NCBI GenBank assembly: GCA_035646395.1
Contig: DASRPK010000118.1
Coordinates: 5,920 to 69,919 of the forward strand
Reading direction: 5' to 3'
Source of the DNA: Gemmatimonadaceae bacterium
GTDB lineage: Bacteria; Gemmatimonadota; Gemmatimonadetes; Gemmatimonadales; Gemmatimonadaceae
DNA length: 64,000 nt
The notes beneath the pieces are model-generated. The model saw only the letters and a list, made by a program, of their open reading frames with translations, was not told where the DNA came from and searched no databases. Below, in pieces: positions 672 through 60,969 of this stretch. Both the position numbers and the translations under genes were made by a program. The first letter of the stretch is position 1. Each line of letters starts with the position of its first letter.

Positions 672-1585
672 CAGACTTTCACCGCGATTCGATAGACAAC
701 ATTACGGGCAACTCCGGTTTCCGCGGCAACCTCGGCCGCGGCATCCCGCGCCGACCTTCCTGCCTCACGTAATGCTTTCACTCGATCTTGCAACTCTTCC
801 TGGTTGAAGGCTTTAGGCGAAGCGCCTGAAAGTAGTATCACAACCTCACCGCGGGGCGCATCATTCTCGTAGTACGCAGCGAGTTCCTCAACCGTTCCGC
901 TCCTGAACTCCTCGAAGAGTTTGGTGATCTCCCGGGCGACAACGCACAGCCGATCCGGCGCACCGGCTCTCGACAACTCGGCGAGTGTAGCGGCTACACG
1001 ATTTGGAGCTTCGTACAACACAACGGTGTGGGTCAGGCTGCTGATCAAATCAATTGCCTCGCGACGTTCGCGCCCGGCTCTTGGCAGGAATCCGAAAAAC
1101 GTGAACCGCGTTGTATCCAGACCCGCCGCGGACAGAGCTGCCGTAAGCGCTGAGGCTCCCGGAATTGGGGAGACCCGGAATCCAGCGGTCCGCACCGCCT
1201 GCACAAGTCGGCTTCCCGGATCCGAAATCAGTGGCGTACCGGCATCGGTTATTACCGCCACGTTTTTCTTCTTTCTCAGCTCGTCGAGGACGAGCGGCAC
1301 GGTGGCCGCTTCGTTATGGGCATGTGCTGCCTTGAGCCGGGACTTGATACCGAAGTGGTCGAGCAGTACCCGGCTTTTTCGCGTGTCTTCGGCGAGGATC
1401 AGGTCCACCGAGCGCAGGATTTCGATGCCTCGCTGCGTCATGTCCCCCAGGTTGCCGATGGGAGTAGCGACGATGAACAACGTCCCACCGTCATTCGGGG
1501 TCAGAGTCGGTGTCAGAGTCGGTGTCGGAGTCGGGGTCAGGTTCCGACTCTGACCCCGTCTCTGACCCCGATCATCCTTGACCAT
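671..1585 (-). CDS. rsmI: 16S rRNA (cytidine1402-2'-O)-methyltransferase RsmI
   Basis: ORF track 304 aa with GTLFIVATPIGNLGDMTQRGIEILRSVDLILAEDTR and ITDAGTPLISDPG motifs typical of RsmI. The first ~35 aa (TPTPTLTPTLTP) translate a repeat hairpin (1498-1570). The true start is probably nearer TTG at 1480. Confidence 0.85.
   Translation of the reverse strand: MVKDDRGQRRGQSRNLTPTPTPTLTPTLTPNDGGTLFIVATPIGNLGDMTQRGIEILRSVDLILAEDTRKSRVLLDHFGIKSRLKAAHAHNEAATVPLVLDELRKKKNVAVITDAGTPLISDPGSRLVQAVRTAGFRVSPIPGASALTAALSAAGLDTTRFTFFGFLPRAGRERREAIDLISSLTHTVVLYEAPNRVAATLAELSRAGAPDRLCVVAREITKLFEEFRSGTVEELAAYYENDAPRGEVVILLSGASPKAFNQEELQDRVKALREAGRSARDAAAEVAAETGVARNVVYRIAVKV
1498..1570. repeat. tandem GTCAGAGTCGGT-type repeat with hairpin (CGGGGTCAG / CTGACCCCG), 3' of trxA
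   Basis: Read directly: gggtcagagtcggtgtcagagtcggtgtcggagtcggggtcagg ttc cgactctgaccccgtctctgaccccg. Confidence 0.7.
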
Positions 1586-1621
1586 GTTTGATTGCTGCTC
1601 GCCGAACGCTGCTGGCCGCCG

Positions 1622-1948
1622 TTAAGCGGCGTGCTTCTTGAACTTCTCTTCGAGCACCGGGCGCGGGACGGCACCGATCACCTGGTCGACGACCTTCCCG
1701 TCCTTGAAGAAGATGACCATCGGGATCGAGCGCACGTTGAATCGCGTGGCCGTCCGGATGTTCGCATCCACGTCGAGCTTTGCGACCTTCGCCTTTCCGG
1801 CGTATTCCGTCGCGAGCTGATCGAGGATCGGTGCGATGATGCGGCAAGGGCCACACCACGCTGCCCAGAAATCCACGACAGCCAGTCCGGAATGCTTCTC
1901 GATCTCGCCTTCGAAGTTCTCGTCCGTTACTGCGCTTGCCAACGACAT
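1622..1948 (-). CDS. trxA: thioredoxin
   Basis: WCGPC active site (VVDFWAAWCGPCRIIAPILD). The internal ATG at 1948 is preceded by GGAGGAAAAAGC (minus strand). The ORF-track start at 2068 adds 40 non-conserved residues. Confidence 0.9.
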   Translation of the reverse strand: MSLASAVTDENFEGEIEKHSGLAVVDFWAAWCGPCRIIAPILDQLATEYAGKAKVAKLDVDANIRTATRFNVRSIPMVIFFKDGKVVDQVIGAVPRPVLEEKFKKHAA

Positions 1949-2031
1949 GCTTTTTCCTCCGCTCGGCGGGCCTACGCGCGCCGGCTTGTTGAGACTAGTT
2001 TCCGCGCGCACCAACCCGGAGCGCGTGTCTG

Positions 2032-2442
2032 ATGTCGGATACCCCTCGCCGTGGAACCCGGATCGCACACGTTGGGCTCGCGGTCAGGTCTGCTGCCGAC
2101 CTGCATTCATTCTATCGCAATGTCCTCGGAATGTCCGAGGCCGACCTCGTTGATAGCGACGGTGCCAGGATCAGCGGTTTCCGTGCGGGTGAATCCCTGG
2201 TTGAGCTCCTTGAATCGGACAAAGCCGACTCACCGATCGGAAAGTTCCTCGACAAGCGAGGACCGGGGATCCACCACATCTGTTTTGCCGTCGACGATCT
2301 CGACGGCACCCTCGCCAACTGTCGTAAAGCCGGAATGCGTCTCATCGACGAGACTCCGCGTGTCGGCGCCGAGGGCAAGCGAATTGCCTTCCTTCACCCC
2401 TCTTCGACTGGCGGAATCCTGATTGAGCTTTCCGAATACTGA
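2032..2442 (+). CDS. methylmalonyl-CoA epimerase / VOC (glyoxalase) family protein
   Basis: 136 aa. IAHVGLAVRS...GPGIHHICFAVDDL...IAFLHPSSTGGILIELSE is the typical methylmalonyl-CoA epimerase pattern. Confidence 0.7.
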   Translation: MSDTPRRGTRIAHVGLAVRSAADLHSFYRNVLGMSEADLVDSDGARISGFRAGESLVELLESDKADSPIGKFLDKRGPGIHHICFAVDDLDGTLANCRKAGMRLIDETPRVGAEGKRIAFLHPSSTGGILIELSEY

Positions 2443-2461
2443 ACGCCCGGAAGGCGCTGAC

Positions 2462-2956
2462 TCAGCGATTCGGCCGGCAGAAATCCGCCTGGACCGAATC
2501 GTAGGCCGCATCTTCGACGTACCAGCGGTTCGATGGGCCTCGCACCACCTTGAACTCGAGCGTCTTCGTCCGTGTGCCTCGGGTCAGCTGAATACGGACA
2601 AGATGTTCGGTCATCGAACTGCCGATGCGGTCATCCAGGATCTGCGCCCGATCATGCATGTAGCATGGTTGCAGGATGATGAGGCGGCGGTCCAGGACAT
2701 CACGTTCCATGTTGTCCCGCGCAGCACCCTGCGCGCTTCCCCACACCGCACCCATCGCCTGGAGATCCTGCGCCTGCGCGGCATTCACGAACATCGTCGC
2801 GGCAGCACTCGCGGACGGAGCACCGGTCAGGGAGGTTCCCATTCCCGGGTTTCTCGCGCACGCAGCGATTACGACTATCAGCAGGGCCCACTTCCTCACA
2901 GAGGTCTCCAGACCAGTTTGAAAGCGAACGTAATGGCGTCTCACCCGGGGAATCAA
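2462..2956 (-). CDS. hypothetical lipoprotein
   Basis: The ORF has a lipobox-like WALLIVVIAAC. The start is uncertain (GTG at 2899 is plausible). No family recognised. Confidence 0.45.
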   Translation of the reverse strand: MIPRVRRHYVRFQTGLETSVRKWALLIVVIAACARNPGMGTSLTGAPSASAAATMFVNAAQAQDLQAMGAVWGSAQGAARDNMERDVLDRRLIILQPCYMHDRAQILDDRIGSSMTEHLVRIQLTRGTRTKTLEFKVVRGPSNRWYVEDAAYDSVQADFCRPNR

Positions 2957-2992
2957 CTAGCGGAGTCCGCCAGCAGGACACCTGACTGAGCC

Positions 2993-3733: not shown

Positions 3734-3760
3734 GAGCGAAGTCGTAACTTCACGCTCCTT

Positions 3761-5317
3761 GTGGTCCCCCACGAGCATCGAACCTCGAGCCTCGCGCCTG
3801 CAGCCAGAATGACGTCTCCCGAGTTGCTGCGATTCTTTCACGCCGAAGCCGAGGAATACCTCGATACCCTCGAGGACCTCGCCTCCCGCTCGGGATCGTT
3901 CGAGGCCGGCGCATTCGTGGGGGCCGCTCGAGCACTCCGTGGAAGCGCGACCATGGCGCGCGTTCCGCGCATCGCGGAGATCGCGCTCGTGATGGAACGC
4001 CTGGCGAACGGTGTGCGTGACGGCGAAGTCAATTGGACTTCGGACCTGCGCTACGCCTTGCTCGACACCATCACGGACCTGCGGGAGTTCGTGGGCCGGA
4101 TCGCCGACTGGTCGAGCAACGATGACCGGAAAGCGCTCGACCGTCTCGGGGCGTTGCGCGGCCGTCTTCCCGCCGGGCAGCAGACGCCGCGGACGCCGCA
4201 GGCTGCCGGCACGACGCCAATCTTCATCGCGTTGCAAGCGGCGGCGATCGCCGGTGACCTCGAGACGTACGTCGACGATCCATCGAGTCACGGCCTGGTC
4301 AACGACGTGGTCAACCGGCTGCGCAGCCTGCGGGGGATCGCTGGTGTTGCGGATTACCCGCCGCTGGGTGAAGCCGCAGACGCCGTCGAGCGCACGCTCC
4401 GCGAGCTGGCGCCCGATTCGGTGCTGCGGGACACCGACACCGAGCTGCTCCGCGCCGCCGCGGCGCTGTTCCGCCGCGCCTCCTCCGAGCTGCGCAATCG
4501 CGGCCGCTTCGATGCCACGGCGCCCGAAGTCGACCGTTTCGCCCGCGCCGCCGCCGCGGTGTCGGCGCCCGCCATGAGTGACGCGCCGGTCGTCCGCATC
4601 GAGGAGCTGTTCTTCACGGACGCCGGGCCACATCTCGTTAGGCGTGGCACGACGCCGGTGCGCAGCGCCGAAGCCCGGTTCCGGGAAGAGGTGGTCACGC
4701 GGGCCGAACATCTGCGCCGGCTGGTGGCGGAAGCGCGCGACGCGTCCGACGCGTTTTCGCGTGAACGGGTGCGTCGCGACCTCAGGGCCCACCTCGCCCA
4801 GCTGGACGAATTTGCTCGCAGCTTTGGCGCGCAGCAGGTGGCGTCGGTGGTCGGCGAAGCGGCGGCGGACCCGGCGTTCTCGGAGAGCGTCCTCGACGCC
4901 ATCGACAATGTCGCGCGGATCCTCACGACTCCCGGAATCAACCTGGCCGAGATGGAAAGCCGGTTGGCGATTGGCGAGCGGCGGCGTTGGACGCCGCAGA
5001 GTTCACCGGCAGCGCCCCCGGCTCCATCGGGACATCCGGAGCGTATCCCTGCGCCGTCGCCACGCTCAGGCCGCGCCTTGCGCCAGATGATCGACGCCAG
5101 CCTGACGCAATTGTCGTCTCTGGAAGAAGTGCCGCTCATCGAACCGGTACGCACCGACGACGACGCGATCGTACCGGTTGAGGCTCTGTTATATCGCGGA
5201 CAGGCAGCCCTGCAACGCGCGCGCGAGCTGCGCGATGAGTTGCGGCATCGCGGCACCACCGACCCCGATGCACTCCATGAGTTGTACGACCTGCTGGATC
5301 TCGCCCGCGTCGATTAA
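3761..5317 (+). CDS. hypothetical protein with HPt-like helical repeats lacking the conserved His
   Basis: 518-aa ORF. The N-terminus FFHAEAEEYLDTLEDLA...ARALRGSATMARVPRIAEIALVMERL resembles the CheA/HPt pattern (FxxEAxExLxxLE...HxLKGSA) but has Ala or Arg where the His sits. A second similar segment is RLRSLRGIAGVADYPPLGEAADAVERTL. An alternative ATG start lies at 3809. Confidence 0.5.
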   Translation: MVPHEHRTSSLAPAARMTSPELLRFFHAEAEEYLDTLEDLASRSGSFEAGAFVGAARALRGSATMARVPRIAEIALVMERLANGVRDGEVNWTSDLRYALLDTITDLREFVGRIADWSSNDDRKALDRLGALRGRLPAGQQTPRTPQAAGTTPIFIALQAAAIAGDLETYVDDPSSHGLVNDVVNRLRSLRGIAGVADYPPLGEAADAVERTLRELAPDSVLRDTDTELLRAAAALFRRASSELRNRGRFDATAPEVDRFARAAAAVSAPAMSDAPVVRIEELFFTDAGPHLVRRGTTPVRSAEARFREEVVTRAEHLRRLVAEARDASDAFSRERVRRDLRAHLAQLDEFARSFGAQQVASVVGEAAADPAFSESVLDAIDNVARILTTPGINLAEMESRLAIGERRRWTPQSSPAAPPAPSGHPERIPAPSPRSGRALRQMIDASLTQLSSLEEVPLIEPVRTDDDAIVPVEALLYRGQAALQRARELRDELRHRGTTDPDALHELYDLLDLARVD

Positions 5318-5321
5318 CTGA

Positions 5322-7255: not shown

Positions 7256-7272
7256 GTTGCCGCTCCCACTTC

Positions 7273-7343
7273 TGCCCCCTCGTCCAATGGCAGGACATCG
7301 GACTTTGGATCCGAGAATGGTGGTTCGAATCCACCGGGGGCAA
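7273..7343 (+). tRNA. tRNA-Gln (anticodon UUG)
   Basis: Hand-folded cloverleaf. Acceptor stem TGCCCCC/GGGGGCA, D stem GTCC/GGAC, anticodon stem TCGGA/TCCGA with loop CTTTGGA, T arm GGTGG-TTCGAAT-CCACC, discriminator A. CCA is not encoded. Confidence 0.9.
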
Positions 7344-7397
7344 TTCCGTCCGGATTGACCTAACCTCCCGTCACATCTACGTTTCAAGGCTACGGTA

Positions 7398-8351: not shown

Positions 8352-8465
8352 CTGCGTGCTGATTGCTGATTGCTGCGTTATGCAGCGTGCTGGTGCTGGT
8401 GTTCGTGCTGATTGCTGTTCGCTGGTCGCGTGCTGCTCGCTACTCGCTGGTCGCTATTCGCGGTC
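8352..8465. repeat. one-armed GCTGATT/GCTGGTG-type tandem tract directly after the prs stop
   Basis: ctgcgtgctgattgctgattgctgcgttatgcagcgtgctggtgctggtgttcgtgctgattgctg... The first 17 nt after the TAG stop are identical to those at 33300-33316 (20 nt counting the stop). Confidence 0.75.
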
Positions 8466-8498
8466 TTAGTCTCCCTCTCCGATCTCACATCTCGTCTC

Positions 8499-9161: not shown

Positions 9162-9823
9162 GCTCGTTCGATTGGCTGAAGCGCTTCCTTGGCCGGGAAA
9201 GTGGCCGGGGCACGAGCGACGAGCCGATGAAGCTCATCGTCGGGTTAGGCAATCCGGGAAAAGAGTACGTCGATACACGGCACAACGTCGGCTGGTGGGT
9301 CATCGACCACCTGGCCGGCGTTTGGCGTTTCGAGGGATGGCGGAAGGACCAGAACTCGCTGGTCAGCGACGGGCGGGTGGGCAACCAGCGCGCACGGCTG
9401 GTCAAGCCGCAGACGTACATGAACCTGAGTGGCGGGATCCTGAGACCTTACCTCCGTCGCGAGACGTGGGAGGTGGCGAGGGACCTGCTCATCATTGTCG
9501 ACGAAGTAGCGCTACCGGTGGGGCGCTTCCGGTTGCGGGCGAGGGGGAGCGCCGGAGGACATAATGGCCTCAAATCCATTGAAGCCGCGGTGGGAGGTCA
9601 GGATTACGCTCGGTTGAGGGTTGGTGTCGGACCGGCGCCGGACCGAAAACGCGAGAGGGACCTGGCCGATTACGTGCTCGATCGAATGGGAAAAGGGGAA
9701 AGGAAGGAAGTGGAGGCTCTTTTTCCGGATCTCGTCGCGTCAGCTGAAACGTGGATTCGAGATGGGGTGGAACTCGCGATGACCCGGTTCAATCGGAAGG
9801 CGGATGTGGGAGATGGGAACTAA
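9158..9823 (+). CDS. pth: peptidyl-tRNA hydrolase
   Basis: MKLIVGLGNPGKEYVDTRHNVGWWVID...GGHNGLKSI. The ORF-track start is a TTG at 9158. The ATG at 9227 (MKLIVGLGNPG) is the more likely start. Confidence 0.9.
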   Translation: MSSFDWLKRFLGRESGRGTSDEPMKLIVGLGNPGKEYVDTRHNVGWWVIDHLAGVWRFEGWRKDQNSLVSDGRVGNQRARLVKPQTYMNLSGGILRPYLRRETWEVARDLLIIVDEVALPVGRFRLRARGSAGGHNGLKSIEAAVGGQDYARLRVGVGPAPDRKRERDLADYVLDRMGKGERKEVEALFPDLVASAETWIRDGVELAMTRFNRKADVGDGN

Positions 9824-9856
9824 CGGGATGGGGGATGTCGGATGGGGGATGGGGGA
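9801..9856. repeat. GGATGGG-type tandem tract (left arm of the inverted pair around the four-helix-bundle gene)
   Basis: cggatgtgggagatgggaactaacgggatgggggatgtcggatgggggatggggg. Confidence 0.7.
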
Positions 9857-10290
9857 GAAACTGCACGAACTCGATCCATTCTGTTGCGGGCAGGCTTCGC
9901 GTTCGCTTTTTCGAGCACCCTGACCCTGAGCGCCGTAAGCATCCCCGCTACCTGATCGATTCGGGCATCGAGTCTCGCGTAGTCAGACAGCGGCAGCAAT
10001 CCGAGGTCCTTGGCGAGGAGCACGTGGTAGTCGAGCTCGCGCACGGACCCGATCGCGATCGTTAGGTATCGCGCGAACTGTGCTGGCGTCACCTGGCCGC
10101 TACCTTCCGAGATGTTAGCCGCTATCGACATCGACGCACGACGCATCTGGTTGATCAGCGACGCGTATCGACCCCGATAAACGCGTTCGGTTACTTCGTG
10201 GATACTCAGCGTGAGTCGATGCGCGCGCTGCCAGACTGCAAGCTTTCGAAACGGGAACATGTAGAACTGTTGCTGGTCTTCAGCGAACAA
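9820..10290 (-). CDS. four-helix-bundle protein (23S rRNA intervening-sequence / S23-like family)
   Basis: FRKLAVWQRAHRLTLSIHEVT...LINQMRRASMSIAANISEGSG...FARYLTIAIGSVRELDYHVLLAKDLG is the typical TIGR02436-type pattern. The gene sits between inverted GGATGG-type repeat tracts. Confidence 0.75.
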   Translation of the reverse strand: MFAEDQQQFYMFPFRKLAVWQRAHRLTLSIHEVTERVYRGRYASLINQMRRASMSIAANISEGSGQVTPAQFARYLTIAIGSVRELDYHVLLAKDLGLLPLSDYARLDARIDQVAGMLTALRVRVLEKANAKPARNRMDRVRAVSPPSPIRHPPSR

Positions 10291-10351
10291 GCATCATCCT
10301 GGCATTGCCTGGTGGATCATTCTCCCGCAGCGGTAACCCGTGATGAAGCTG

Positions 10352-10392
10352 TCCGACCTCCGACCTCCGACATCCGCCATCCGTTGGGTTAG
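10352..10392. repeat. inverted partner tract (CCGACCT/CATCCGC units)
   Basis: The reverse complement of tccgacctccgacctccgacatccgccatccgttgggttag reads ctaacccaacggatggcggatgtcggaggtcggaggtcgga. It shares ctaac...ggatgg.ggatgtcgga with 9819-9845. Confidence 0.65.
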
Positions 10393-11060
10393 TCGACGGG
10401 AGCCATCACCCTCGCATCATCCGTTTTCGGGTCGTTCACCAGCAACCCGATCTCCCACGTTCGCATTTCGTCCGGTGAGAACGGACCAACCAGACGTCTC
10501 ACGTCTGCAATCTTCGTGGATTGGTCCAGCCACGCCTTATAGTCTCCGGGTCGAATAATGACTGGCATCCGATCATGAATCGGTTCCAGTAATTCGTTAG
10601 GCTCCGTGGTCAGAATCGCGCACGTAATCAGCCACTCGCCGCTCTCCTTCGCGCGCCACGCTTCCCAGAGCCCGCCGAGGGCAAAGATCTCGCCGTCTCG
10701 GATCGCGATCGCATAGGGCTTCCGCCGCTTCTGGCCCGGCACGTCCTGCCACTCATAAAAAACGTCGGCGGGGATAAGGCACCGGCGTTTCTGCATCGCC
10801 GCGCGAAAGGCGCCCTTTTCGAGCGCCGTATCGGACCGGACATTGGCCATCCGATTGCCAATGCTCGGGTCCTTGGCCCAGGACGGGACGAGTCCCCACC
10901 GTATCATCTCGGCCTCGGTGCCCCCCTTTCGTTCCCGCACCACCAGGATGTCGGAGCTGGGAGGGATGTTGTAACGCGGGACGAGGGGCGGGAGCTCGGT
11001 GATTCCGAAACGCTCCAGTTTCAGGGCTTCAGGGCGCGTGAGTCCGAATCGGCCGCACAT
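10389..11060 (-). CDS. SOS response-associated peptidase (SRAP/YedK, abasic-site processing protein)
   Basis: The start is set at ATG 11060 so that the protein begins MCGRFG (catalytic Cys2). WGLVPSWAKD motif is present. The ORF-track N-terminal 47 aa translate a repeat tract. Confidence 0.85.
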   Translation of the reverse strand: MCGRFGLTRPEALKLERFGITELPPLVPRYNIPPSSDILVVRERKGGTEAEMIRWGLVPSWAKDPSIGNRMANVRSDTALEKGAFRAAMQKRRCLIPADVFYEWQDVPGQKRRKPYAIAIRDGEIFALGGLWEAWRAKESGEWLITCAILTTEPNELLEPIHDRMPVIIRPGDYKAWLDQSTKIADVRRLVGPFSPDEMRTWEIGLLVNDPKTDDARVMAPVD

Positions 11061-11070
11061 GATTTGGATA

Positions 11071-11203
11071 ACGGATGGGAGATGGCGGATGGGAGACAAC
11101 GCCTCCACACTAATCTGAAGCGTGGCACTGGCCGCGATGTGGTCGTGGTTGTCCCCCCTCCCCCATCTGCCCTCCGACATCCGAGCCCTGCCATCCGCCA
11201 TCG
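11071..11203. repeat. GGATGGG-family long hairpin in the SRAP / rpsF divergent region
   Basis: Left arm acggatgggagatggcggatgggagacaac. Right arm gtcccccctcccccatctgccctccgacatccgagccctgccatccgccatc. Confidence 0.65.
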
Positions 11204-12938: not shown

Positions 12939-12957
12939 CGACTCTGGAGCTCATCTC

Positions 12958-13401: not shown

Positions 13402-13404
13402 CAA

Positions 13405-13465
13405 GAGTTGAAGAGTTGAAGCGTTGAAGAGTTCCCGCTCTGCAACTGTTCAACTGTTCAACCTC
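13405..13465. repeat. GTTGAAGA 8-mer tandem hairpin directly after the rplI stop
   Basis: gagttgaagagttgaagcgttgaagagtt cccgctctgc aactgttcaactgttcaacctc. Confidence 0.7.
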
Positions 13466-13701
13466 GACCGTCGGGGAAGGTCAGCCGCGGCGTGTCGAAA
13501 GTCTGGGCTCGTTGGATCGGGATTCCCCCCGTCCCACGAGCCCTTCTGCCATTCGTACCGTCCCTTTCACCGTCTTGTAATGTCGCGACCTGTGCAGGCG
13601 CATTATGCTTTGTCGAACACGGGAGAATCGCAGGGCTCCCGGATCCGGAACAATTCTCACAGCCTCTCCTACAAAGGCGCGTTCGTGACTCACTACCGCG
13701 C

Positions 13702-14082
13702 ATGAAGTCGTCATCGGCCACACGGCCAAGTCTTGCTGCCGCACAGACGGCAGCCGCGCTCTGTCTCGACCTGAAAGCGAACGATGTTGTGATCCTGGAC
13801 CTGGAAGGTGTCACCGACATGACCGACTGTTTCGTGATCGCCAGCGGCTCGTCGGACACCCACGTCAGGGCCATCGCGGAATTCGTCGCCGAAGAGATGA
13901 AGAAGCGCGGGTTTCCAGCACATCACGTCGAAGGACTCAATCAGGGGCGCTGGGCGCTCGTTGATTTCGTGGATTTCGTGGTGCACGTCTTTCATCCCAC
14001 GTTGCGGTCGTTCTACCAGCTGGAACGACTGTGGGGGGATGCGGCGGTGGTCGCGGTGGATCCGCAAGGAGCAGGCACATGA
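13702..14082 (+). CDS. rsfS: ribosome silencing factor RsfS (iojap family)
   Basis: From ATG 13702: AAALCLDLKANDVVILDLEGVTDMTDCFVIASGSSDTHVRAIAEFV...WALVDFVDFVVHVFHP...YQLERLW. Confidence 0.85.
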   Translation: MKSSSATRPSLAAAQTAAALCLDLKANDVVILDLEGVTDMTDCFVIASGSSDTHVRAIAEFVAEEMKKRGFPAHHVEGLNQGRWALVDFVDFVVHVFHPTLRSFYQLERLWGDAAVVAVDPQGAGT

Positions 14083-17000
14083 GGCATCTCAGACAGGCAA
14101 GCCTGGTAGCGCTAGCGCTGATCCTCGTCGCGGTCGTCGCGGCACCGGTCAAAGCCCAGCAGTACTTCGGCCAGAACCAGGTCCAGTTCGACAAGTTCAA
14201 CTGGAAGGTCAAGGAAACGGCGCACTTCCTGATCCACTTCTATCCGGAAGAGCGCGACGGCATCAACGATGCCGCGCGCATGGCCGAGCGCTCGTATGCG
14301 CGCCTGTCCCGGATGCTCAAGCATGAGTTCCGCGAAAAGAAGCCGCTGATCCTGTATCGCTCCCGCGGCGACTTCGGGCAGAACAACGTGACGGGTGACC
14401 TGGGCGAAGGCGTCGGCGGTGTGACCGAGGCGCTGCGCCACCGGATCCTCCTCCCCTTCACCGGCGACTACAAGAGCTTTGAGCACGTTCTCGCGCACGA
14501 GCTCGTCCACGCGTTCCAATACGACATCTTTGCGCGCGGCCGGGCCGGCAACGGGCTGCAAACGCTGGCGCAGGTCGATCCACCGCTCTGGTTCGCGGAG
14601 GGCATGGCGGAATACCTGTCGCTCGGACCGAACCACATCCTCACGCAGTCCTGGGTCCGTGACGCGGCACTGAACGGTACGCTGCCCACCATCGAGCAGA
14701 TGACCGAGCGGCCGGACCTGTTCTTCCCCTACCGCTACGGAGAGGCGCTCTGGGAGTACATCGGTGGACGTTGGGGTGACGACGTCATCGGTGAGATCAT
14801 GAACTCCGCGCCTAACGTCGGCATCGACCGTGCCTTCAAGCGCGAGCTCGGCCTGAGCCTCGAGGAGTTGAGCGAGGAGTGGCGGGACGCGATGCAGGTC
14901 AAGCACCTGCCGCAGGTCTCCACCCTGGACCGCGCCCGCAAGTTCTCCGAGCCGTTGTTGTCCCAGCGCAAGACCGGTGGCTTCTCGCAGCTCTTCATCG
15001 CCCCCGCGCTCTCGCCGGACGGCAAGCTGATTACCTTCATCTCGCAGGGGAGTTTCCTGCGCGGTGAGGTTTTCCCCGATCTCTGGTTAGGCGATGCCGA
15101 GACGGGCAAGCGGATCAAGCGCCTCGTCCAGACGACTACGTCGCCGGACTTCGAGGAGCTGCGCCTGCTCTACTCGCAGAGCGCCTTCTCACCGGATGGC
15201 AAACTGCTCGCATTCTCCGCCCAGCGCGAAGGTCGCGACATCCTGTACGTGATGGACGTCCAGCGGCGGAAGACAATCAAGCGGTTCGACGTCGGCCTCG
15301 AATGGGTGACGTCGCCCAGCTGGAGTCCTGACGGCAAGCAGATCGTGGTGAGCGGATCGAGCACCGGCCTGACCGACCTGTTCGTGATCGACTACGAGAC
15401 GGCGGCCCTGCGCCGCCTGACGAACGACAAGAACGGCGACCTGCAGCCGGCGTGGTCCCCCGACGGGCAGCAGATCGCCTTCGTGACCGAGCGCGGTGAG
15501 ACCACCGACCTCGACATCCTGCGACTCGGGACGTGGAAGGTCGCGATCTACGACTTCCGCAACGGGAACATCGAGGTTGTCGGCGGCCAGGGCGGGCATA
15601 ACCTGAACCCGCAGTGGGCGCCCGATGGAAAGGCGATCGCCTACATCAGCGATCGCACAGGGATCGCGAACGTGTTCCTCTACGACGTGGGCAACAAGGA
15701 ACACTACCAGCTGACGAACGTGATCGGCTCGGTCAGCGGCATCACCGAGTACAGCCCCGCCATCACCTGGGCGCGTCAGGCCGACAAGCTCGCGTTCACG
15801 TACTTCGAGGACGGCGACTACACGGTCTGGATGACGAACAACCCGCGGCGGCTGCGCGACCAGCCGTTCCGGCCCAAGCCGGTGGTCGTGGCGTCGGCGC
15901 AGACACCTAACGCGGCCACCGCGGCGCAGACCATGGCCGCGCTGCGGCAGGCGGAGGCGCAGCGCGGCGAAAGCATGCGGGCAGCGATCGACGCTGCGGC
16001 ACGCGACTCAGGATCGGCAGGCGCCGATCCACGCCGGCAGTCCATCTATCGCGCGTCCACGGGCATCCGGCCATCGGCCGATATCCCGGGCATGAACGAA
16101 CGGTCGGGCGCGAGCCCGGTGAGCGTGGCGCAGTTGCTCGACAGCGTGAACCTGGCCCTCCCCGACACGACAACCTTCCGCGAATACGACTACAAGGTTG
16201 GATACCGGCCGGAATCGATTTACCGGCCGAGCATCGGCTACGCGCAGGACAATTACGGTCGTGGCCTGTATGGCGGCGCGGGCGTGATCCTGGCCGACCT
16301 GCTGGGCAACAACCAGATGATCGTTGCCGGCCAGGTGAATGGCCGGTTGAGCGAGGCCTTCCTCCTCGGCGCCTACACCAGCCTCGGGAATCGCCTGCAG
16401 TACACCCTGGGCGTGTCCCAATCGCCCTATTTCTTCGTGCAGGACTATGGATGGACCCCGTTCGGTGACGGCAGCGCGAATTTTCTCGAGGAGTACGTCG
16501 TTGCGCGCTACATCGTGCGTGAGGCTTTTGCCATCGGCATGAGACCATCCAACCGCTTCAACCGGATGGAGCTCGGTGTTTCTGCCAATAACGTGTCACG
16601 CTCCATCGCGGTGTATAGCCGCGCGGTGGATGGGTACACTGGCTACGGCACGCAATGGCTCGTGGACAGCATCATCAACTTCCCTGGCCTGAATTACATC
16701 GCGCCATACGTAGCGTACGTGTCGGACAATTCATTGTTCGGATATACCGGCCCGATCGCCGGCCGGCGCTATCGCGTACAGGTGCAACCGGTCGTGGGCG
16801 GACTGCGCTGGACGGAATTTTCGGCGGACTACCGTCGTTATGTGCCCCTGCTCTTCAATTTCCTCACGGTCGCCTGGCGGACCCAGACCAGCATCGGCGT
16901 CGGACCCGACGAGATGATGTTCCCGAAGTACCTCGGTCGCGCGGACTTTGTGCGCGGATACGACCGTGAACAGTATGCCGCCCAGTTCTGCGGCGGAATC

Positions 17001-17366
17001 TTCTCCGATCAGACGGCCTGTAACGTGACCGAGCTTCTGGGGAGCCGGTTCCTGCTCGGCAATGTCGAGTTGCGGTTCCCGCTCGTCAGGCGGTTCGATC
17101 TCGGCGTCATTCCGATTTCGCTGCCGCCGGTCGATGGTTTGTTCTTCTTCGACGCCGGCGTCGCGTGGTCGAAAGGCCAGAAAGTTTCGTTGTCGAAGCC
17201 CGAGGATTACGACCAGGACTTCCAGCGTTACCTGCTGCGCAGCTACGGTATGGGCGTGCGACTGAATCTCTTCGGCTACGCACTCCTGCGCGCGGACTAC
17301 GCAATTCCGCTCGATCGAGGCACGCGACGCGGATACTGGGTGTTGACGCTCGGACCGAGTTTCTGA
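14079..17366 (+). CDS. outer-membrane fusion protein: HExxH peptidase-like domain + TolB-like (PD40) beta-propeller + Omp85/D15-type beta-barrel
   Basis: ATG 14079 (ATGA overlap with rsfS) gives the signal peptide MRHLRQASLVALALILVAVVAAPVKAQ. HELVHAFQYDIF provides HExxH. Five PD40-type repeats are present (LSPDGK, FSPDGK, SWSPDGK, AWSPDGQ, QWAPDGK). The C-terminal barrel ends ...GYWVLTLGPSF with a terminal aromatic residue. Confidence 0.7.
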   Translation: MRHLRQASLVALALILVAVVAAPVKAQQYFGQNQVQFDKFNWKVKETAHFLIHFYPEERDGINDAARMAERSYARLSRMLKHEFREKKPLILYRSRGDFGQNNVTGDLGEGVGGVTEALRHRILLPFTGDYKSFEHVLAHELVHAFQYDIFARGRAGNGLQTLAQVDPPLWFAEGMAEYLSLGPNHILTQSWVRDAALNGTLPTIEQMTERPDLFFPYRYGEALWEYIGGRWGDDVIGEIMNSAPNVGIDRAFKRELGLSLEELSEEWRDAMQVKHLPQVSTLDRARKFSEPLLSQRKTGGFSQLFIAPALSPDGKLITFISQGSFLRGEVFPDLWLGDAETGKRIKRLVQTTTSPDFEELRLLYSQSAFSPDGKLLAFSAQREGRDILYVMDVQRRKTIKRFDVGLEWVTSPSWSPDGKQIVVSGSSTGLTDLFVIDYETAALRRLTNDKNGDLQPAWSPDGQQIAFVTERGETTDLDILRLGTWKVAIYDFRNGNIEVVGGQGGHNLNPQWAPDGKAIAYISDRTGIANVFLYDVGNKEHYQLTNVIGSVSGITEYSPAITWARQADKLAFTYFEDGDYTVWMTNNPRRLRDQPFRPKPVVVASAQTPNAATAAQTMAALRQAEAQRGESMRAAIDAAARDSGSAGADPRRQSIYRASTGIRPSADIPGMNERSGASPVSVAQLLDSVNLALPDTTTFREYDYKVGYRPESIYRPSIGYAQDNYGRGLYGGAGVILADLLGNNQMIVAGQVNGRLSEAFLLGAYTSLGNRLQYTLGVSQSPYFFVQDYGWTPFGDGSANFLEEYVVARYIVREAFAIGMRPSNRFNRMELGVSANNVSRSIAVYSRAVDGYTGYGTQWLVDSIINFPGLNYIAPYVAYVSDNSLFGYTGPIAGRRYRVQVQPVVGGLRWTEFSADYRRYVPLLFNFLTVAWRTQTSIGVGPDEMMFPKYLGRADFVRGYDREQYAAQFCGGIFSDQTACNVTELLGSRFLLGNVELRFPLVRRFDLGVIPISLPPVDGLFFFDAGVAWSKGQKVSLSKPEDYDQDFQRYLLRSYGMGVRLNLFGYALLRADYAIPLDRGTRRGYWVLTLGPSF

Positions 17367-17370
17367 CGGG

Positions 17371-17481
17371 CAACAAGCAAGAAGCAAGAAGGGAAGGAAC
17401 GAAACGGTTGAAATCTGAGGGCCCGAGCGTGTTAGCGCCGGGCCCTCAGTCGTTCCCTTCTTGCTTCTTGCTTCTTGCTTT
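17371..17481. repeat. GCAAGAA-armed nested hairpin with GAGGGCCCG core, 3' of the OMP fusion gene
   Basis: aacaagcaagaagcaagaagggaaggaacg...ctgagggcccg agcgtgttagcgc cgggccctcag tcgttcccttcttgcttcttgcttcttgctt. Confidence 0.85.
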
Positions 17482-17515
17482 TACTCTTTGTTTCCCCGCT
17501 TGCCCCGCCTAACTT

Positions 17516-23853: not shown

Positions 23854-23860
23854 GCACAGC

Positions 23861-23936
23861 GGACGTGGGAGATGGGACGTGGGAGGAAGCTGATCACGTC
23901 TGATCAGGTTTCTCCCACATCCCACGTCCCACGTCC
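23861..23936. repeat. GGGACGT/GGGAGAT heptamer-armed hairpin, 3' of smc
   Basis: ggacgtgggagatgggacgtgggaggaagctgatca cgtc tgatcaggtttctcccacatcccacgtcccacgtcc. About 30 of 36 arm positions pair by hand alignment. Confidence 0.8.
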
Positions 23937-23939
23937 AGC

Positions 23940-26444: not shown

Positions 26445-26594
26445 ACGAGGAAGCAGGAAGCAGGAAGCAGGAAGCAGGGAAGGATTGAGGGCCCGCGGCT
26501 ATCGCTCGCGGGCCCTCGAATTTTCACGTTTCGTTCCTTCCTGCTTCCTGCTTCCTGCCTCTGCCTCCTGCTTCCTGCTTTCTGCTTCCTGCTT
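26445..26594. repeat. GCAGGAA-armed nested hairpin with GAGGGCCCG core, filling the LolA-like / S41 protease convergent spacer
   Basis: acgaggaagcaggaagcaggaagcaggaagcagggaaggattgagggcccgcg gctatcgct cgcgggccctcgaa...ttccttcctgcttcctgcttcctgcc... Confidence 0.85.
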
Positions 26595-33299: not shown

Positions 33300-33407
33300 C
33301 TGCGTGCTGATTGCTGCTGCATGTGCATCGTGCTTGTGCTAGAGCACCAGCACCAGCCACGTAGCAGTTACGCAGTAGCAATCAGCAATCAGCAATCAGC
33401 ACGCAGC
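33300..33407. repeat. GCTGATT/AATCAGC-armed long hairpin filling the MBL / hyuB convergent spacer
   Basis: ctgcgtgctgattgctgctgcatgtgcatcgtgcttgtgct agagc accagcaccagccacgtagcagttacgcagtagcaatcagcaatcagcaatcagcacgcagc. Confidence 0.85.
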
Positions 33408-34955: not shown

Positions 34956-34992
34956 GGGGCAGACGGGGCACGGGGCACGGGGCATGGGGCAA
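34956..34992. repeat. GGGGCAC heptamer tract between hyuA stop and hyuB start
   Basis: ggggcagacggggcacggggcacggggcatggggcaa. Confidence 0.75.
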
Positions 34993-46506: not shown

Positions 46507-46513
46507 GGGCAGG

Positions 46514-50402: not shown

Positions 50403-50431
50403 GGGATGGCGGATGGCGGATGACGGATGGG
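50403..50431. repeat. GGATGGC heptamer tract between the NtrC-like stop and the next start codon
   Basis: gggatggcggatggcggatgacggatggg. Confidence 0.75.
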
Positions 50432-50440
50432 CGAAACATC

Positions 50441-52452: not shown

Positions 52453-52496
52453 GACGTTCCTTACGGTTCGGAAGTGGGGAACGATTCGGCGGGAAT

Positions 52497-54074: not shown

Positions 54075-54109
54075 GCGCGAAACGTAGCGCAGTCACCACC
54101 GCAACACAG

Positions 54110-54895: not shown

Positions 54896-54945
54896 GCATG
54901 GAAAATGTCACGGCCTGTCGCGCTTTGCAGGGCGTGGGCTGACCC

Positions 54946-55022
54946 GGGGCATGGGGTACAGGGCATGGGGTCTGGGATTGCAGCCCCATGCCCTATGCCC
55001 CATGCCCCATTGCCCCATGGGG
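54946..55022. repeat. GGGGCAT-armed hairpin in the esterase / NMO divergent region
   Basis: ggggcatggggtacagggcatggggtctggg attgca gccccatgccctatgccccatgccccattgccccatgggg. Confidence 0.8.
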
Positions 55023-55361
55023 CTGGTGTTGCTAAGTCGGTCCTGGATCGCGATTCTTTGCGGAGTGACAGCGTTGTTCGTCCTTCTTCTGGGCCGCTGC
55101 GAGCGGCCCGGACCCCATCAAAGTCTCGGGGTGGACTGCCAGTCAGTCCTCCTCATGAACAGCGTGGCGCGTGGGCTGGGAGGGGGTGTTTTTCCAGATC
55201 AGTCGTCGACAAGAAGTACTCCGGCCCGGGCCGCTGGCGGGCGCTTCCTGAGAGATCCTTAAGTCGCAAATGGGTGTGGGAAACTCGATCAGGCCGGTAG
55301 ATTACATGGCTTGATCTCCGACGAGTGCGTCGTCAAGCTGGTCCACCGAGCTAATACGCGA

Positions 55362-57068: not shown

Positions 57069-57136
57069 CGCGAAGCCTCTTCGCATAGCCATTCACGACC
57101 CTTCCCTTTCATGGGTGGGGCGCGCCAGCTTGCGGC

Positions 57137-58048: not shown

Positions 58049-58053
58049 ACAGA

Positions 58054-58088
58054 GCAAGAAGCAAGAAGCAAGAAGCAAGAAGCGAGAT
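58054..58088. repeat. GCAAGAA heptamer tract (4 units plus a degenerate one) directly after the arginase stop
   Basis: gcaagaagcaagaagcaagaagcaagaagcgagat. No inverted partner was seen. Confidence 0.8.
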
Positions 58089-58122
58089 GACAAACTGCGG
58101 CGGCACTTAATCGAAGCCTAAC

Positions 58123-59217: not shown

Positions 59218-59230
59218 GGGTCGAACGGGG

Positions 59231-59283
59231 GGCAGTCCGCGGCATATGGCAGTTCGCGGTGTACGGCAGTCTGCGCTTTTTTT
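59231..59283. terminator. three tandem ~17-nt GGCAGTNCGCGG units followed by a T7 run in the TIGR00300 / comM convergent spacer
   Basis: ggcagtccgcggcatat ggcagttcgcggtgtac ggcagtctgcgc ttttttt. The T-run suggests an intrinsic terminator for the plus-strand gene. The stem was not rigorously folded. Confidence 0.4.
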
Positions 59284-60805
59284 ACTCGCGCTGATCCGTC
59301 CGATAATGCAACGCCTCAGCCACATGCCGCTGTGTGATTCCGGGATCGGCATCGAGGTCTGCGATCGTTCGCGCCACCTTGAGGACGCGATGATATCCGC
59401 GGGCTGAGAGCGCGAGCCGCGTCGCGGCTGTGGCAAGCAATTCCCGCGCCGATGCGTCGATTCCACCATTCGCATCCAGCCAGCGGCCGTGCACGTGTGC
59501 ATTGCACGTCACCGACGCAAATGATCTGTAGCGGAGGGCCTGTCGAGCCCGAGCCAGTTCCACACGCTCGCGAATGACGCAGGACGCCTCCGCCCGCGAC
59601 GACTCGGCCAGCACCCGCAGCGGAACGGCCGGAACCCGCACGGTCATGTCGATCCGGTCGGCCAGCGGACCGGAGACTTTCGAGCGATGGCGAGCAACGT
59701 CGAGCGCAGAGCAGGTACAGCTCGTGCCGTTCGGGCTACCGAGCCGGCCGCATGGGCAGGGATTCATGGCGCCAACCAGCGTGAAGCGCGCGGGAAACGC
59801 GACTGACCGCGCCGCCCTGGCAATGACGACGCGCCCTTCCTCCAACGGCTGGCGCAGGGCATCCAGCACGTGACGCGGCATCTCCTGGAGCTCATCGAGA
59901 AAGAGGACGCCGTGGTGTGCGAGGCTTACCTCCCCCGGGCGCGGTCCGCTGCCTCCGCCGATCAGCGCCGCCGCCGACAACGTGTGATGTGGCGCGCGAA
60001 ACGGTCGACGGCCGGAGGGTGCTTCGCCAGGCGTCACCAGTCCCGCCACCGAGTGGATCGCCACCACATCGAGCGCTTCCGCTTCGCCTAACGCGGGAAG
60101 GATCGTGGGCAGCCGGCGGGCGAGCATCGTCTTGCCGGTCCCGGGCGGGCCGATCATCAGGACCGCATGGCCGCCGGCGGCCGCGATCTCGAGGGCCCGC
60201 TTGGCCAGTGGCTGACCGGCCACGTCCGCCATGTCCGCGGCGTCCTCCGGCTCATTCACCAGCGCAGCCACCGCCGGCGGTGCGGACAACGCGTCGCGGC
60301 GAAGGGCGTCCACCAGCATCGCCAGCGACTCGGCTGCACTGATTTTGATGGATGACACGAGAGCCGCTTCGGGAACGTTCGGCAGCGGGAGGATGAGGGT
60401 CGGATCCGTCGGTGCGCGGGCGAGCAGTCTGGCAACGGGCAGTACGCCCCGCACTGGTCGAAGTGACCCATCGAGCCCCAGTTCGCCGAGTGCGACGATG
60501 CCGTCGGTGGCACCATTGCGAAGTTGTCCGGTCGCCACGAGAAGCCCTAACGCGATCGGCAGGTCGAAGGCGGTGCCGTCCTTACGGGTATCGGCTGGGG
60601 CGAGATTAATAGTGACCCGCCTGGGAGGCACCTGGAAACCCGAATTGACGACCGCCGCCGATACGCGTTCCCGGCTCTCGCGAACCGCACCCGCCGGTAG
60701 ACCAACTATGGTCCATTGAGGTAGTCCGGCGGCGACGTCTACCTCGACCACAACGTGGTACGCGTCAATCCCTACGACGGCGGCCGATGCGATCGCGGCG
60801 AGCAT
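59282..60805 (-). CDS. YifB/ComM-family Mg-chelatase-like AAA+ ATPase
   Basis: N-terminal Lon-like domain (VVEVDVAAGLP...IVGLP), Walker A GPPGTGKTMLARRL, GVLFLDELQE, C-terminal ChlI-type region. Confidence 0.9.
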   Translation of the reverse strand: MLAAIASAAVVGIDAYHVVVEVDVAAGLPQWTIVGLPAGAVRESRERVSAAVVNSGFQVPPRRVTINLAPADTRKDGTAFDLPIALGLLVATGQLRNGATDGIVALGELGLDGSLRPVRGVLPVARLLARAPTDPTLILPLPNVPEAALVSSIKISAAESLAMLVDALRRDALSAPPAVAALVNEPEDAADMADVAGQPLAKRALEIAAAGGHAVLMIGPPGTGKTMLARRLPTILPALGEAEALDVVAIHSVAGLVTPGEAPSGRRPFRAPHHTLSAAALIGGGSGPRPGEVSLAHHGVLFLDELQEMPRHVLDALRQPLEEGRVVIARAARSVAFPARFTLVGAMNPCPCGRLGSPNGTSCTCSALDVARHRSKVSGPLADRIDMTVRVPAVPLRVLAESSRAEASCVIRERVELARARQALRYRSFASVTCNAHVHGRWLDANGGIDASARELLATAATRLALSARGYHRVLKVARTIADLDADPGITQRHVAEALHYRTDQRE

Positions 60806-60909
60806 GCGGTACGATCAGTCCACGCGCGCTGCGTGTCTTCATCGTCACAATGCGCATCGAAGCATTGGAACGCATCGAAGGCCGCGACTAGCGACCCGCA
60901 ACCTGTTTT

Positions 60910-60969
60910 CACGACTCACGATTCACGATTCACGAATCACGAATCACGAATCACGAATCACGAGTCACC
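60910..60969. repeat. CACGAAT heptamer tract (about 8.5 units) between the GGDEF-EAL stop and the comM start
   Basis: cacgact cacgatt cacgatt cacgaat cacgaat cacgaat cacgaat cacgagt cacc. Confidence 0.85.

Follow-up and report, generated by a model that had tools for sequence, protein, structure and literature searches.

Tandem heptamers in bacterial non-coding DNA have been on record since about 1990 as short tandemly repeated repetitive (STRR) sequences, which were first described in Nostocales; the cyanobacterial STRR are reportedly due to Mazel et al. in 1990. The STRR units CCCCAGT, TTGGTCA and CAACAGT match none of the units treated below, which lie in 64,000 nucleotides (the window) of contig DASRPK010000118.1 from a soil Gemmatimonadaceae bacterium. 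Fifteen intergenic loci of the window consist of short units, mostly of 7 nt, repeated in tandem and often followed by an inverted copy, and at one of them two such arrays enclose a gene of the "23S rRNA intervening-sequence protein" family (IVP, also called S23p).

Among long simple-sequence repeats, heptanucleotides are quoted as the commonest class in the majority of prokaryotic genomes surveyed (Mrazek 2007, as cited in PMC4679880), and 7 nt has been proposed to be the contact length of the polymerase (Mrazek 2007, as cited in PMC4679880 and PMC4692102). Like the window tracts, these long heptamers and the STRR are dominated by 7-nt units among those of 5-11 nt, non-coding, slippage-prone and phylogenetically patchy; inverted pairing, G-first polarity and the hugging of stop codons do not appear in the openly readable parts of those descriptions. 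The closest described parallel is in Xanthomonas, where Rehm et al. (2015) counted 70-75 inverted GGGAATC array pairs per genome, preferentially no more than 50 bp from stop codons (PMC4692102). The Xanthomonas repeats and the GGGGA(C/T)T repeats of Nostoc resemble the window tracts in being tandem 7-nt units over-represented in non-coding DNA, near stop codons and rarely between divergent genes, able as convergent pairs to form stem-loops, and kept in position with variable length between species (PMC4692102). They differ in using one G-tract consensus unit genome-wide, with an emphasis on quadruplexes and a preference for four copies (PMC4692102), whereas the window, in another phylum, has many unrelated units in 3-9 copies, most of them unable to form quadruplexes. 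Stop-codon proximity and inverted array pairs are found in the window as well; its units (GCAAGAA, GCAGGAA, GGATGGG, GGGGCAC, GCTGATT, TCACGAA and others) are neither GGGAATC nor GGGGA(C/T)T. Rehm et al. draw no link to IVP (PMC4692102).

Another parallel is the intervening sequence (IVS) of 23S rRNA that bears an open reading frame (ORF), as in Coxiella, Leptospira and Brucella (Warrier et al. 2016, PMC4990558), in which an inverted-repeat stem surrounds a PF05635 ORF with strain-variable heptamers upstream. In Coxiella burnetii, two or three GACAGAT units, their number varying with the strain, precede the S23p ORF, and the IVS is closed by terminal inverted repeats that form a stem cut by RNase III in vitro (PMC4990558). 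The same architecture is seen at 9801-10392 of the window and in the 23S IVS of Azospirillum; unlike the described IVS, the window element lies between protein genes and most of the loci lack an ORF, and RNase III excision has been shown for Coxiella only. The sequence-only reading of the window knew of no family whose arms are themselves microsatellites, which is contradicted by the Xanthomonas GGGAATC pairs (PMC4692102) and by the Coxiella IVS heptamers (PMC4990558). The TAACTGA repeats of Beggiatoaceae (MacGregor 2015, PMC4679880) are likewise intergenic tandem heptamers, of 2-6 copies, and occur in scattered phyla including cyanobacteria and Bacteroidetes; they differ in having one unit per genome, in being almost always direct (1 inverted in 170) and in standing just upstream of start codons (PMC4679880). 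The REP/BIME, REPIN-RAYT and miniature inverted-repeat transposable element (MITE) families share with the window multi-copy short intergenic palindromes, often at gene 3' ends, and possibly the relation of a full-length to a miniature form; unlike them, the window arms are microsatellites with fast unit turnover, and the candidate "cargo" is a non-enzymatic four-helix-bundle protein.

The window tracts belong to the known class of heptanucleotide simple-sequence repeats, in that head-to-tail 7-nt units extend beyond chance length and whole units are gained and lost between strains. What is newly added is a cross-phylum link between IVP genes and heptamer arms. Our preference, held with modest conviction, is that the tracts are a lineage-wide population of heptanucleotide repeat elements, IVS-like and slippage-prone hairpins that mostly carry no gene. 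A unit of 7 nt (sometimes 8 or 12 nt) would be amplified in tandem, usually facing its own reverse complement; the short-loop hairpins would be gene-less relatives of the IVS-like element, as MITEs are of full-length elements, or alternatively the sites in which IVP genes lodge; and the elements might spread by copying and then drift by slippage.

The gene-bearing element of the window has three parts:

9801 to 9856, no strand assigned: (GGATGGG/GGGAGAT)n array; it forms the element arm on the 3' side of the IVP gene and overlaps the stop codon of pth (9821-9823).
9823 to 10260, minus strand: IVP/S23p gene, for a four-helix-bundle "23S rRNA intervening-sequence protein", enclosed by the 9801 and 10352 arrays.
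10352 to 10392, no strand assigned: (TCCGACC/CATCCGC)n array, the 9801 family in reverse complement; it forms the arm on the 5' side of the IVP gene and ends exactly at the SRAP stop codon (10389-10391).

The ORF matches PF05635 (E 1e-28) and TIGR02436 (E 6e-28), and its sole PDB relative is 2GSC, the Xanthomonas campestris protein XCC0516 (E 1e-12). That the 9801 and 10352 arrays are two arms around a gene had been missed in the sequence-only reading. Over 31 nt, 9801-9856 and 10352-10382 are inverted and 77% complementary, and the minimum-free-energy fold of the 611-nt element joins the two arms by 26 pairs across about 500 nt, with an arm duplex of -45 kcal/mol. In the closest species compared (L007), whose coding DNA is about 75-80% identical to the window, the arms of the IVP element are 43 nt long and 84% complementary. 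Terminal inverted repeats closing a stem of at least about 20 bp around the ORF, as in an IVS, are thus present, and an internal PF05635 ORF is present at one of the 15 loci; a location in a 23S or 16S rRNA helix is not, the element lying between pth and the SRAP gene and the window containing no rRNA. The array at 9801-9823 also supplies the last codons of pth (...ADVGDGN*), and the opposite strand (9823-9860) is the proline-rich tail of the IVP ORF (...SPPSPIRHPPSR*). The claim that the tracts are non-coding is true of most of them but not of these two stretches. In a relative with a 91%-identical Prs (L008, 3597-4025), the IVP gene of the pth-SRAP interval is oppositely oriented and has no clear repeat arms, which could be an inversion or an independent insertion.

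The family comparison covered the window and 80 related Gemmatimonadaceae loci (80 species; 1.27 Mb in total). The window has a G+C content of 60-69%, and its Prs is 96% identical to that of the metagenome-assembled genome (MAG) DATCIJ010000063; for 79 other Gemmatimonadaceae/Gemmatimonadales species the Prs identity is 74-91%. Arrays were called with Tandem Repeats Finder, overlapping rows being collapsed before counting, and dinucleotide shuffles served as the null. For flank complementarity, the left flank of each gene was scored against the reverse complement of its right flank, in IVP and in control genes. The 1126 controls had a median score of 9.5 and a 99th percentile of 15.4; ten of the 16 IVP genes in related loci scored 19-37, above that percentile, and the window's IVP gene scored 15.0, which 1.3% of controls reach. 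The third-best "control" is in truth another IVP gene; when it and the window's gene are counted, the result is 11 of 17 (Fisher test, p 8e-17). Similarly, a period-7 array adjoins 12 of 17 IVP genes and 11.7% of 1172 control genes (p 4e-8). An independent sample of 80 metagenome IVP loci, found with a five-sequence IVP alignment, gave a flanking period-7 array in 57, and 29 of the 66 evaluable loci exceeded the control 99th percentile, almost all of them with heptamer arms of locus-specific units.

These counts bear on a reading in which the arrays are a pure by-product of mutation: replication slipping by preference in 7-nt steps would raise arrays anywhere, purging from coding and regulatory DNA would leave them heaped against stop codons as functionless tracts, inverted arms would arise by chance or by template switching, and IVP would merely land in spare DNA. 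Such a by-product, which we consider rather unlikely, does not account for arrays being 18-fold enriched at IVP genes relative to the other genes of the same DNA.

The association extends to other phyla. A tblastn search of plasmids with the IVP found homologues in 20 records, 17 of them cyanobacterial and mostly Nostocales; the homologue search otherwise matched only close Gemmatimonadaceae-like relatives. Ten of the 11 named IVP genes are flanked by purine-rich arrays, the downstream array being the inverted complement in nine; the IVP of Calothrix PCC 7716 is the only one of the 11 without arrays. In Nostoc punctiforme (two plasmids), Trichormus variabilis and Aulosira, (CAGGAGT/CAGAATT)n runs up to the IVP start and its inverted complement follows directly after the stop. 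In Geminocystis, Leptolyngbya and Gemmatirosa kalamazoonensis purine-rich arrays precede the gene and complementary ones follow it, as they do on a Picosynechococcus plasmid (L193), where IVP lies between cas10 and cmr3. On a Pseudanabaena plasmid (L188) IVP lies between cas6 and cas4, with heptamers on both sides in the same direction and no complement. The match in Azospirillum lipoferum is a genuine IVS of 23S rRNA, whose arms read CAGAGGA CGGATGA CAGAGGA. In X. campestris, GGGAATC repeat #15 is 6 nt from bccP and covers the start codon of XCC0516 (PMC4692102, supplementary table), and XCC0516 is the crystallized IVP homologue (PDB 2GSC). The literature searched, which excluded subscription-only papers, contains no account of Gemmatimonadota heptamer arrays or of a general link between IVP and heptamers.

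A broader proposal, which we put forward tentatively, is that the hairpins and the PF05635 IVP are a single widespread element system, with full-length forms in which a purine-rich heptamer array precedes the IVP gene and a complementary array follows it, known from rRNA helices, from cas operons and from spacers of housekeeping genes, and with gene-less derivatives or substrates; IVP might help to propagate, generate or use the repeats. The STRR-type, Xanthomonas GGGAATC and Gemmatimonadaceae tracts would then all be gene-less forms. "23S rRNA IVP" is listed among CRISPR-array-associated proteins (PMC10910872), and the repeats may be of practical use in explaining that listing, either through IVP genes inside cas operons or through arrays misread as CRISPR repeats.

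The tight co-location of IVP and arrays across phyla is also what favors periodic binding sites, that is, operators or translation elements recognized by a protein (IVP, or a ribosome-associated or RNA-binding factor) that reads the 7-nt register. Nostocales arrays reach the IVP start codon and their units contain the Shine-Dalgarno-like AGGAG, and IVP is presumably related to the nucleic acid-binding Avd protein. The toroidal pentamer formed by IVP (PMC4990558) counts on the same side. The units, however, have almost nothing in common from one locus or species to the next, so that a protein recognizing their sequence would require a separate specificity for each, and Coxiella S23p is apparently not made in vivo (PMC4990558); we judge the binding-site explanation to be decidedly unlikely.

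Gene-bearing and gene-less elements share arms within a genome. In the approximately 20-64 kb available per genome for such comparisons, the IVP arm has a strong second match in the same ~20-kb locus in eight of 11 genomes, and none in other genomes. In one relative (L064), a gene-less hairpin in the prs-rplY spacer and the IVP element, 3.4 kb apart, share 44 nt at 97.7%, a stretch that includes non-repeat ends (CGGCAAAGATGA) and the order of variant units. The arm family of the window IVP element comprises 9801, 10352, 11071, 23861 and 50403, so that 23861, which had been listed as a singleton unit, belongs with 9801, 11071 and 50403. The loci at 17371 and 26445 have a common unit family and a common GC-rich core (GAGGGCCCG...CGGGCCCTC), and the first 17 nt are common to 8352 and 33300. 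By their sequences, loci with shared arms look like paralogous copies that later drifted by slippage. Near-identical arms 3.4 kb apart, with the same variant-unit order and the same non-repeat termini, are left unexplained if the arrays are a mutational by-product.

Tandem Repeats Finder calls an array at each of the fifteen listed loci. Period-7 arrays number 18 in the window and 1.8 per dinucleotide shuffle, about ten-fold over chance, and apart from multiples of three no other period in the window exceeds its shuffles to a similar degree. All period-7 arrays except two weak ones (3772 and 20644) are intergenic. The remaining features are as follows, z being the folding score of a locus against 100 shuffles and dG its folding free energy:

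1495 to 1572, no strand assigned: hairpin with arms of 12-nt units, TCGGGGTCAGAG x3.8 and CCGACTCTGACC x2.3 (Tandem Repeats Finder; dG -54.7, z -8.1); read on the minus strand, it follows the trx stop (1622) and precedes the rsmI start (about 1493).
8352 to 8465, plus strand: one-armed degenerate heptamers (CTGCGTG / CTGATTG / CTGGTCG...; Tandem Repeats Finder; z +1.1, no hairpin), occupying the spacer of prs and rplY from the prs stop onward and ending about 33 nt short of the rplY ATG (8499).
11071 to 11203, no strand assigned: gene-less hairpin of the 9801 arm family (GGATGGGAGATGG... / ...CCCATCTGCCCTCCGACATCC) in the divergent SRAP/rpsF region (z -3.1).
13403 to 13465, no strand assigned: hairpin of 8-nt units, AAGAGTTG x3.9 and CAACTGTT x2.5 (z -5.7), beginning 3 nt past the rplI stop, with rsfS downstream.
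17370 to 17480, no strand assigned: hairpin with (GCAAGAA)n and (CTTCTTG)n arms and the GC-rich core GAGGGCCCG...CGGGCCCTC (dG -76.6, z -10.7), beginning 4 nt past the stop of a PD40 protein gene.
23861 to 23936, no strand assigned: hairpin with (GGGACGT/GGGAGAT)n and (TCCCACG)n arms (dG -61.5, z -12.3), between the smc stop (23853) and the next start (23940).
26445 to 26595, no strand assigned: hairpin with (AGGAAGC)4.4 and (CTTCCTG)8.6 arms and a GC core as at 17371 (dG -96.5, z -10.5), in the spacer of the convergent lolA and S41-peptidase genes.
33300 to 33407, no strand assigned: hairpin with CTGCGTGCTGATTGCTG... and (AGCAATC)3.6 arms (z -5.6), in the convergent MBL-hydrolase/hyuB spacer.
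34956 to 34992, minus strand: one-armed (GGGGCAC)x4 in the hyuA-hyuB operon spacer, 16 nt past the hyuA stop (z -0.3); the plus strand is G-rich and the transcript C-rich.
50403 to 50431, minus strand: one-armed (GGATGGC)x3.9, 9 nt past the stop of a sigma-54 activator gene and abutting the start of the next ORF.
54946 to 55022, no strand assigned: hairpin with (GGGGCAT)n and (GCCCCAT)n arms in a long divergent region (dG -62.3, z -5.6).
58053 to 58087, plus strand: one-armed (AGCAAGA)x5, 5 nt past the arginase stop and 34 nt before an argZ-like start.
59231 to 59283, no strand assigned: 17-nt unit x2.6 with a T7 end, in the convergent argZ-like/comM spacer (Tandem Repeats Finder score 55; z -1.5).
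60909 to 60968, minus strand: one-armed (TCACGAA)x8.6, 11 nt past the stop of a GGDEF-EAL gene and 104 nt before the comM start.

Folding is strong at 1490-1575 (z -8.1), 13402-13466 (-5.7), 17367-17485 (-10.7), 23856-23938 (-12.3), 26445-26594 (-10.5), 33300-33407 (-5.6) and 54946-55022 (-5.6), and weaker at 11071-11203 (-3.1), so that eight loci fold better than their shuffles, seven of them at z -5.6 to -12.3. Counting the long-range pairing of 9801 with 10352 across some 500 nt, eight self-contained hairpins and one long-range pair among 15 loci only just bear out the sequence-only reading that most loci form hairpins. Several had been described as one-armed, and seven (8352, 9801, 10352, 34956, 50403, 58054 and 59231) indeed gave no self-folding hairpin against 100 shuffles; the array at 60910 is partly self-complementary (z -3.2 on the plus and -4.2 on the minus strand). 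Since the arms are reverse complements, with the G-rich arm almost always 5', each strand of a two-armed element can fold an imperfect stem of 25-50 bp. The 17-mer at 59231, weak, non-folding and invariant between strains, is a weak member of the repeat class, if a member at all.

With gene ends anchored on Pfam matches, 13 of the 15 loci lie 0-16 nt from the nearest stop codon, in agreement with the earlier count (8352, 9801, 10352, 13405, 17371, 23861, 26445, 33300, 34956, 50403, 58054, 59231 and 60910). The exceptions are 1498, directly beside the rsmI start with 50 nt separating it from the trx stop, and 11071 and 54946, which sit in divergent regions. The convergent spacers at 26445 and 33300 are each filled from stop to stop, as had been noticed, and the false N-terminal ORF extensions at rplY (true ATG 8499), SRAP (MCGRF at about 11060), hyuB and rsmI were likewise correctly called. 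Arrays hug stop codons and keep away from start codons. The statement that almost every sizeable spacer has this architecture was too strong, since about 14 other spacers of at least 44 nt carry no array. A degenerate, weak CGAGCCT-like x4 tract at 3772-3799, in the spacer between pdxJ and an Hpt-protein gene (true start probably the ATG at 3810), may be a decayed sixteenth locus.

Searches for known RNA families returned little that touches these loci. An Rfam scan of the window at gathering threshold found only a tRNA-Gln, and permissive Rfam scans of related hairpins gave only sub-threshold look-alikes of microRNA precursors, that is, generic long hairpins. A CRISPR array was considered and rejected, the units being contiguous with no spacers. 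Several contigs end inside the 26445 array, as they might if the tracts were artefacts of short-read metagenome assembly; the same tracts, though, occur in assemblies of this species made independently (ENA, JGI and Logan), and tracts of the same kind are found in relatives, both in long-read MAGs and in complete genomes, and on the finished plasmids of cultured strains. An artefact, which the sequence-only reading had named as a possible refutation, is therefore excluded, and we give it next to no probability.

Strains of the species differ by whole 7-nt units at 33300, 58054, 60910 and 26445, in stretches that are otherwise identical except for one single-nucleotide polymorphism (SNP) at 33300; slippage, one of the mechanisms suggested earlier, is borne out. 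At 33300, seven assemblies have either 3 or 2 AGCAATC units; at 58054, three strain contigs have 4, 5 or 6 perfect GCAAGAA copies between otherwise identical flanks; and at 60910, one contig (L088) has one unit fewer. Three strain alleles were found at 26445, where same-species contigs were reached through the 202-aa LolA protein, one allele lacking a left-arm unit and another a right-arm unit. Across 7 strain contigs the 23861 hairpin is constant in length and has 1 SNP, which falls in the loop, and the 59231 17-mer is invariant in 5 contigs. Replication slippage is acting separately on each arm; a stem of tandem units can re-pair in a shifted register, so a unit change in one arm leaves the stem intact. 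Homogenization of the arms by template switching has no support, as the 26445 arms vary independently between strains; the order of variant units is also not mirrored in the two arms of 23861. Three independent same-species short-read contigs (L100, L101 and L102, covering about 26445-26555) all stop within the (AGGAAGC)n array, which makes the repeats breakpoints of assembly.

Between species the units turn over. Other lineages have units of their own (GGAAAAT, AGGGTTC, CAGAATT, GAGTAGG, GGATATG and others), and window units find very few matches in other genomes, so the units are no conserved vocabulary. The comparison of orthologous spacers proposed in the sequence-only reading shows the same turnover in L007: its prs-rplY heptamers differ from the window's, related units surround its IVP and SRAP genes, no element occurs in its orthologous spacers of 1498 and 13405, the 17371 site has an ordinary hairpin and T7 terminator, and the orthologue of 11071 is a perfect (GGGAGAT)n/(ATCTCCC)n hairpin. 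An array is present in the prs-rplY spacer of 30 of 73 lineages, with a best period of 7 in 14 of these and with unrelated units; the arrays lie a median of 5 nt from the prs stop and never less than 10 nt from the rplY start region, so that position is kept while sequence is replaced. An arm sequence recurs within a genome, yet is replaced by unrelated units at the orthologous spacers of other species.

Much of this would also be expected if the arrays were only a mutational by-product: near-identical strains are polymorphic by whole units, units are wholly replaced between species, arrays end at the borders of coding sequence and avoid start regions, one-armed arrays exist, and the published hypothesis of a 7-nt polymerase contact supplies a cause (Mrazek 2007, as cited in PMC4679880 and PMC4692102). 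Two properties of the two-armed elements do not follow from it. The first is pairing itself: across the 1.27 Mb, an inverted two-unit partner within 250 nt was found for 63 of 156 period-7 arrays, 11 of 80 period-8 and 7 of 319 period-9 arrays, and for none of period 10 or 11, and a by-product leaves unexplained why 40% of period-7 arrays have such a partner as against 14% or fewer for periods 8-11. The second is polarity: 28 out of 29 clean two-armed elements have their G-rich arm, which is usually purine-rich, at the 5' side and none has the C-rich arm first (binomial p 7e-9), a polarity that is identical when read on either strand. The 28:0 ratio is likewise unaccounted for by slippage bias.

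The sequence-only reading took the loci for selected, U-tract-less ("I-shaped") terminators or mRNA-stabilizing 3' structures, the repeats being an easy route to a long stem. We regard this as possible but doubtful. For it speak the location 0-16 nt past stop codons, the wholly filled convergent spacers and the very stable stems, and the purine-first polarity matches that of bidirectional terminators with an A-tract and a T-tract. One heptamer stem (L059) has A9 on one flank and T7 on the other, and the canonical terminator of L007 occupies the site orthologous to 17371. Canonical hairpin and T-run terminators are not enriched over shuffles in the window, and a consensus scan flags none of the hairpins; the lack of a canonical surplus makes U-tract-less 3' structures plausible. 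T-rich tails occur only at 17371 (which ends in CTTTT), after the GC core of 26445, and at 59231. The loci do not have the GC-rich stem-loop directly followed by a U-tract that defines an intrinsic terminator, most window stems being without a T-run, and one-armed arrays cannot terminate. Hairpins in divergent regions (11071 and 54946) or directly upstream of a start codon (1498) are at odds with termination, and arms around IVP genes or inside 23S rRNA are unexplained by it. The efficiency of U-tract-less terminators is itself disputed.

If the loci are instead IVS-like elements, as we prefer to think, their long stems on transcripts might behave as IVS stems do and be cut by RNase III as double-stranded RNA. 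A pyrimidine-rich 3' arm would give a weak RNA-DNA hybrid, and such an arm could provide a U-tract-poor terminator or 3'-end structure that defines mRNA ends between genes. The stems probably act as RNase III substrates and/or terminator-like 3' structures. The one-armed arrays of operon spacers would be partnerless repeats, probably near-neutral filler of variable length.

G-quadruplexes, proposed as regulatory structures for the GGGNATC repeats of Xanthomonas and Nostoc, could be formed where G3-4 tracts occur in at least four copies, as in GGGGCAC at 34956, GGGGCAT at 54946, GGATGGG at 9801 and GGGACGT at 23861, and the placement rules of the window match those of Rehm et al. (PMC4692102). 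By sequence, at least four G3 tracts are present only at 34956, at 54946 and in parts of 9801 and 23861. GCAAGAA, GCAGGAA, GCTGATT, TCACGAA, GTTGAAGA and most units of relatives (CAGAATT, GGAAAAT, AGTGCTT) have no G-tract, copy number is not centered on four, and the duplex with the inverted arm would compete. As a general explanation quadruplexes were rejected, most units lacking G-tracts, and we consider a regulatory role of this kind highly improbable.

A number of observations weigh against the IVS-like element as the general explanation. Only one of the 15 window loci carries the gene, and the GCAAGAA, GCTGATT and GGGGCAN arm families have no IVP partner in these 64 kb. To our knowledge, IVP has no enzymatic activity. 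No transposase, RAYT or copying mechanism was identified, the window proteins not all having been screened for transposases, and comparison by eye of sites with and without an element revealed no target-site duplication. Gene conversion between arrays, rather than copying, could be the source of the arms that loci of one genome share. The Gemmatimonas-like group keeps a small hairpin base (CGGCG...CGCCG) while the interior varies, which growth in place fits as well as insertion does. In the flank test, control genes were delimited slightly differently from IVP genes, with total flank length equal. Most 3' arms lack a T-run, and a terminator would have little purpose in the divergent promoter regions that hold the hairpins at 11071 and 54946. 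Coxiella S23p has been suggested not to be synthesized in vivo (PMC4990558).

In the literature the heptamers are without an established function, a guess about polymerase contact length being the sole published idea on why the unit has 7 nt, and the S23p/IVP family and the origin of rRNA IVS are described as unexplained. If the co-location reflects one system, these three separate puzzles would merge into one testable problem, for which cultured Gemmatimonas, Gemmatirosa, Nostoc and Xanthomonas, the solved structure 2GSC and RNase III assays offer experimental handles. In practical terms, the repeats cause false N-terminal ORF extensions and break short-read assemblies, and unit-number alleles are ready strain markers for uncultured soil Gemmatimonadaceae.

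Some further features of the region deserve mention. The tRNA-Gln (anticodon TTG) at 7273-7343, just upstream of prs, is the sole Rfam/ARAGORN match in the window. The divergent region that holds the 54946 hairpin, from 54896 to about 55361 (some 466 nt), is unusually long and has no recognized gene; its ORF 54905-55300 has no Pfam match, and a small gene or RNA could be hidden there. The rsfS ORF (13492-14082) is over-called at its 5' end, the Pfam match beginning at residue 86, and it overlaps, in another frame, the start of the large PD40 protein ORF (14031-17366), so that both starts need curation. In relatives only (for example L075, about 11070-11110, and L076, about 11010-11050), the conserved motifs CATGGTAGGGAGGACGCAGCCTCCTGAGAGTAG and GGCCGGGaCGACCATTTCCGGTTACTCCCGAACCAC, which have no Rfam match and are both absent from the window, lie upstream of rplY in many Gemmatimonadaceae and may be an undescribed leader of ribosomal protein L25.

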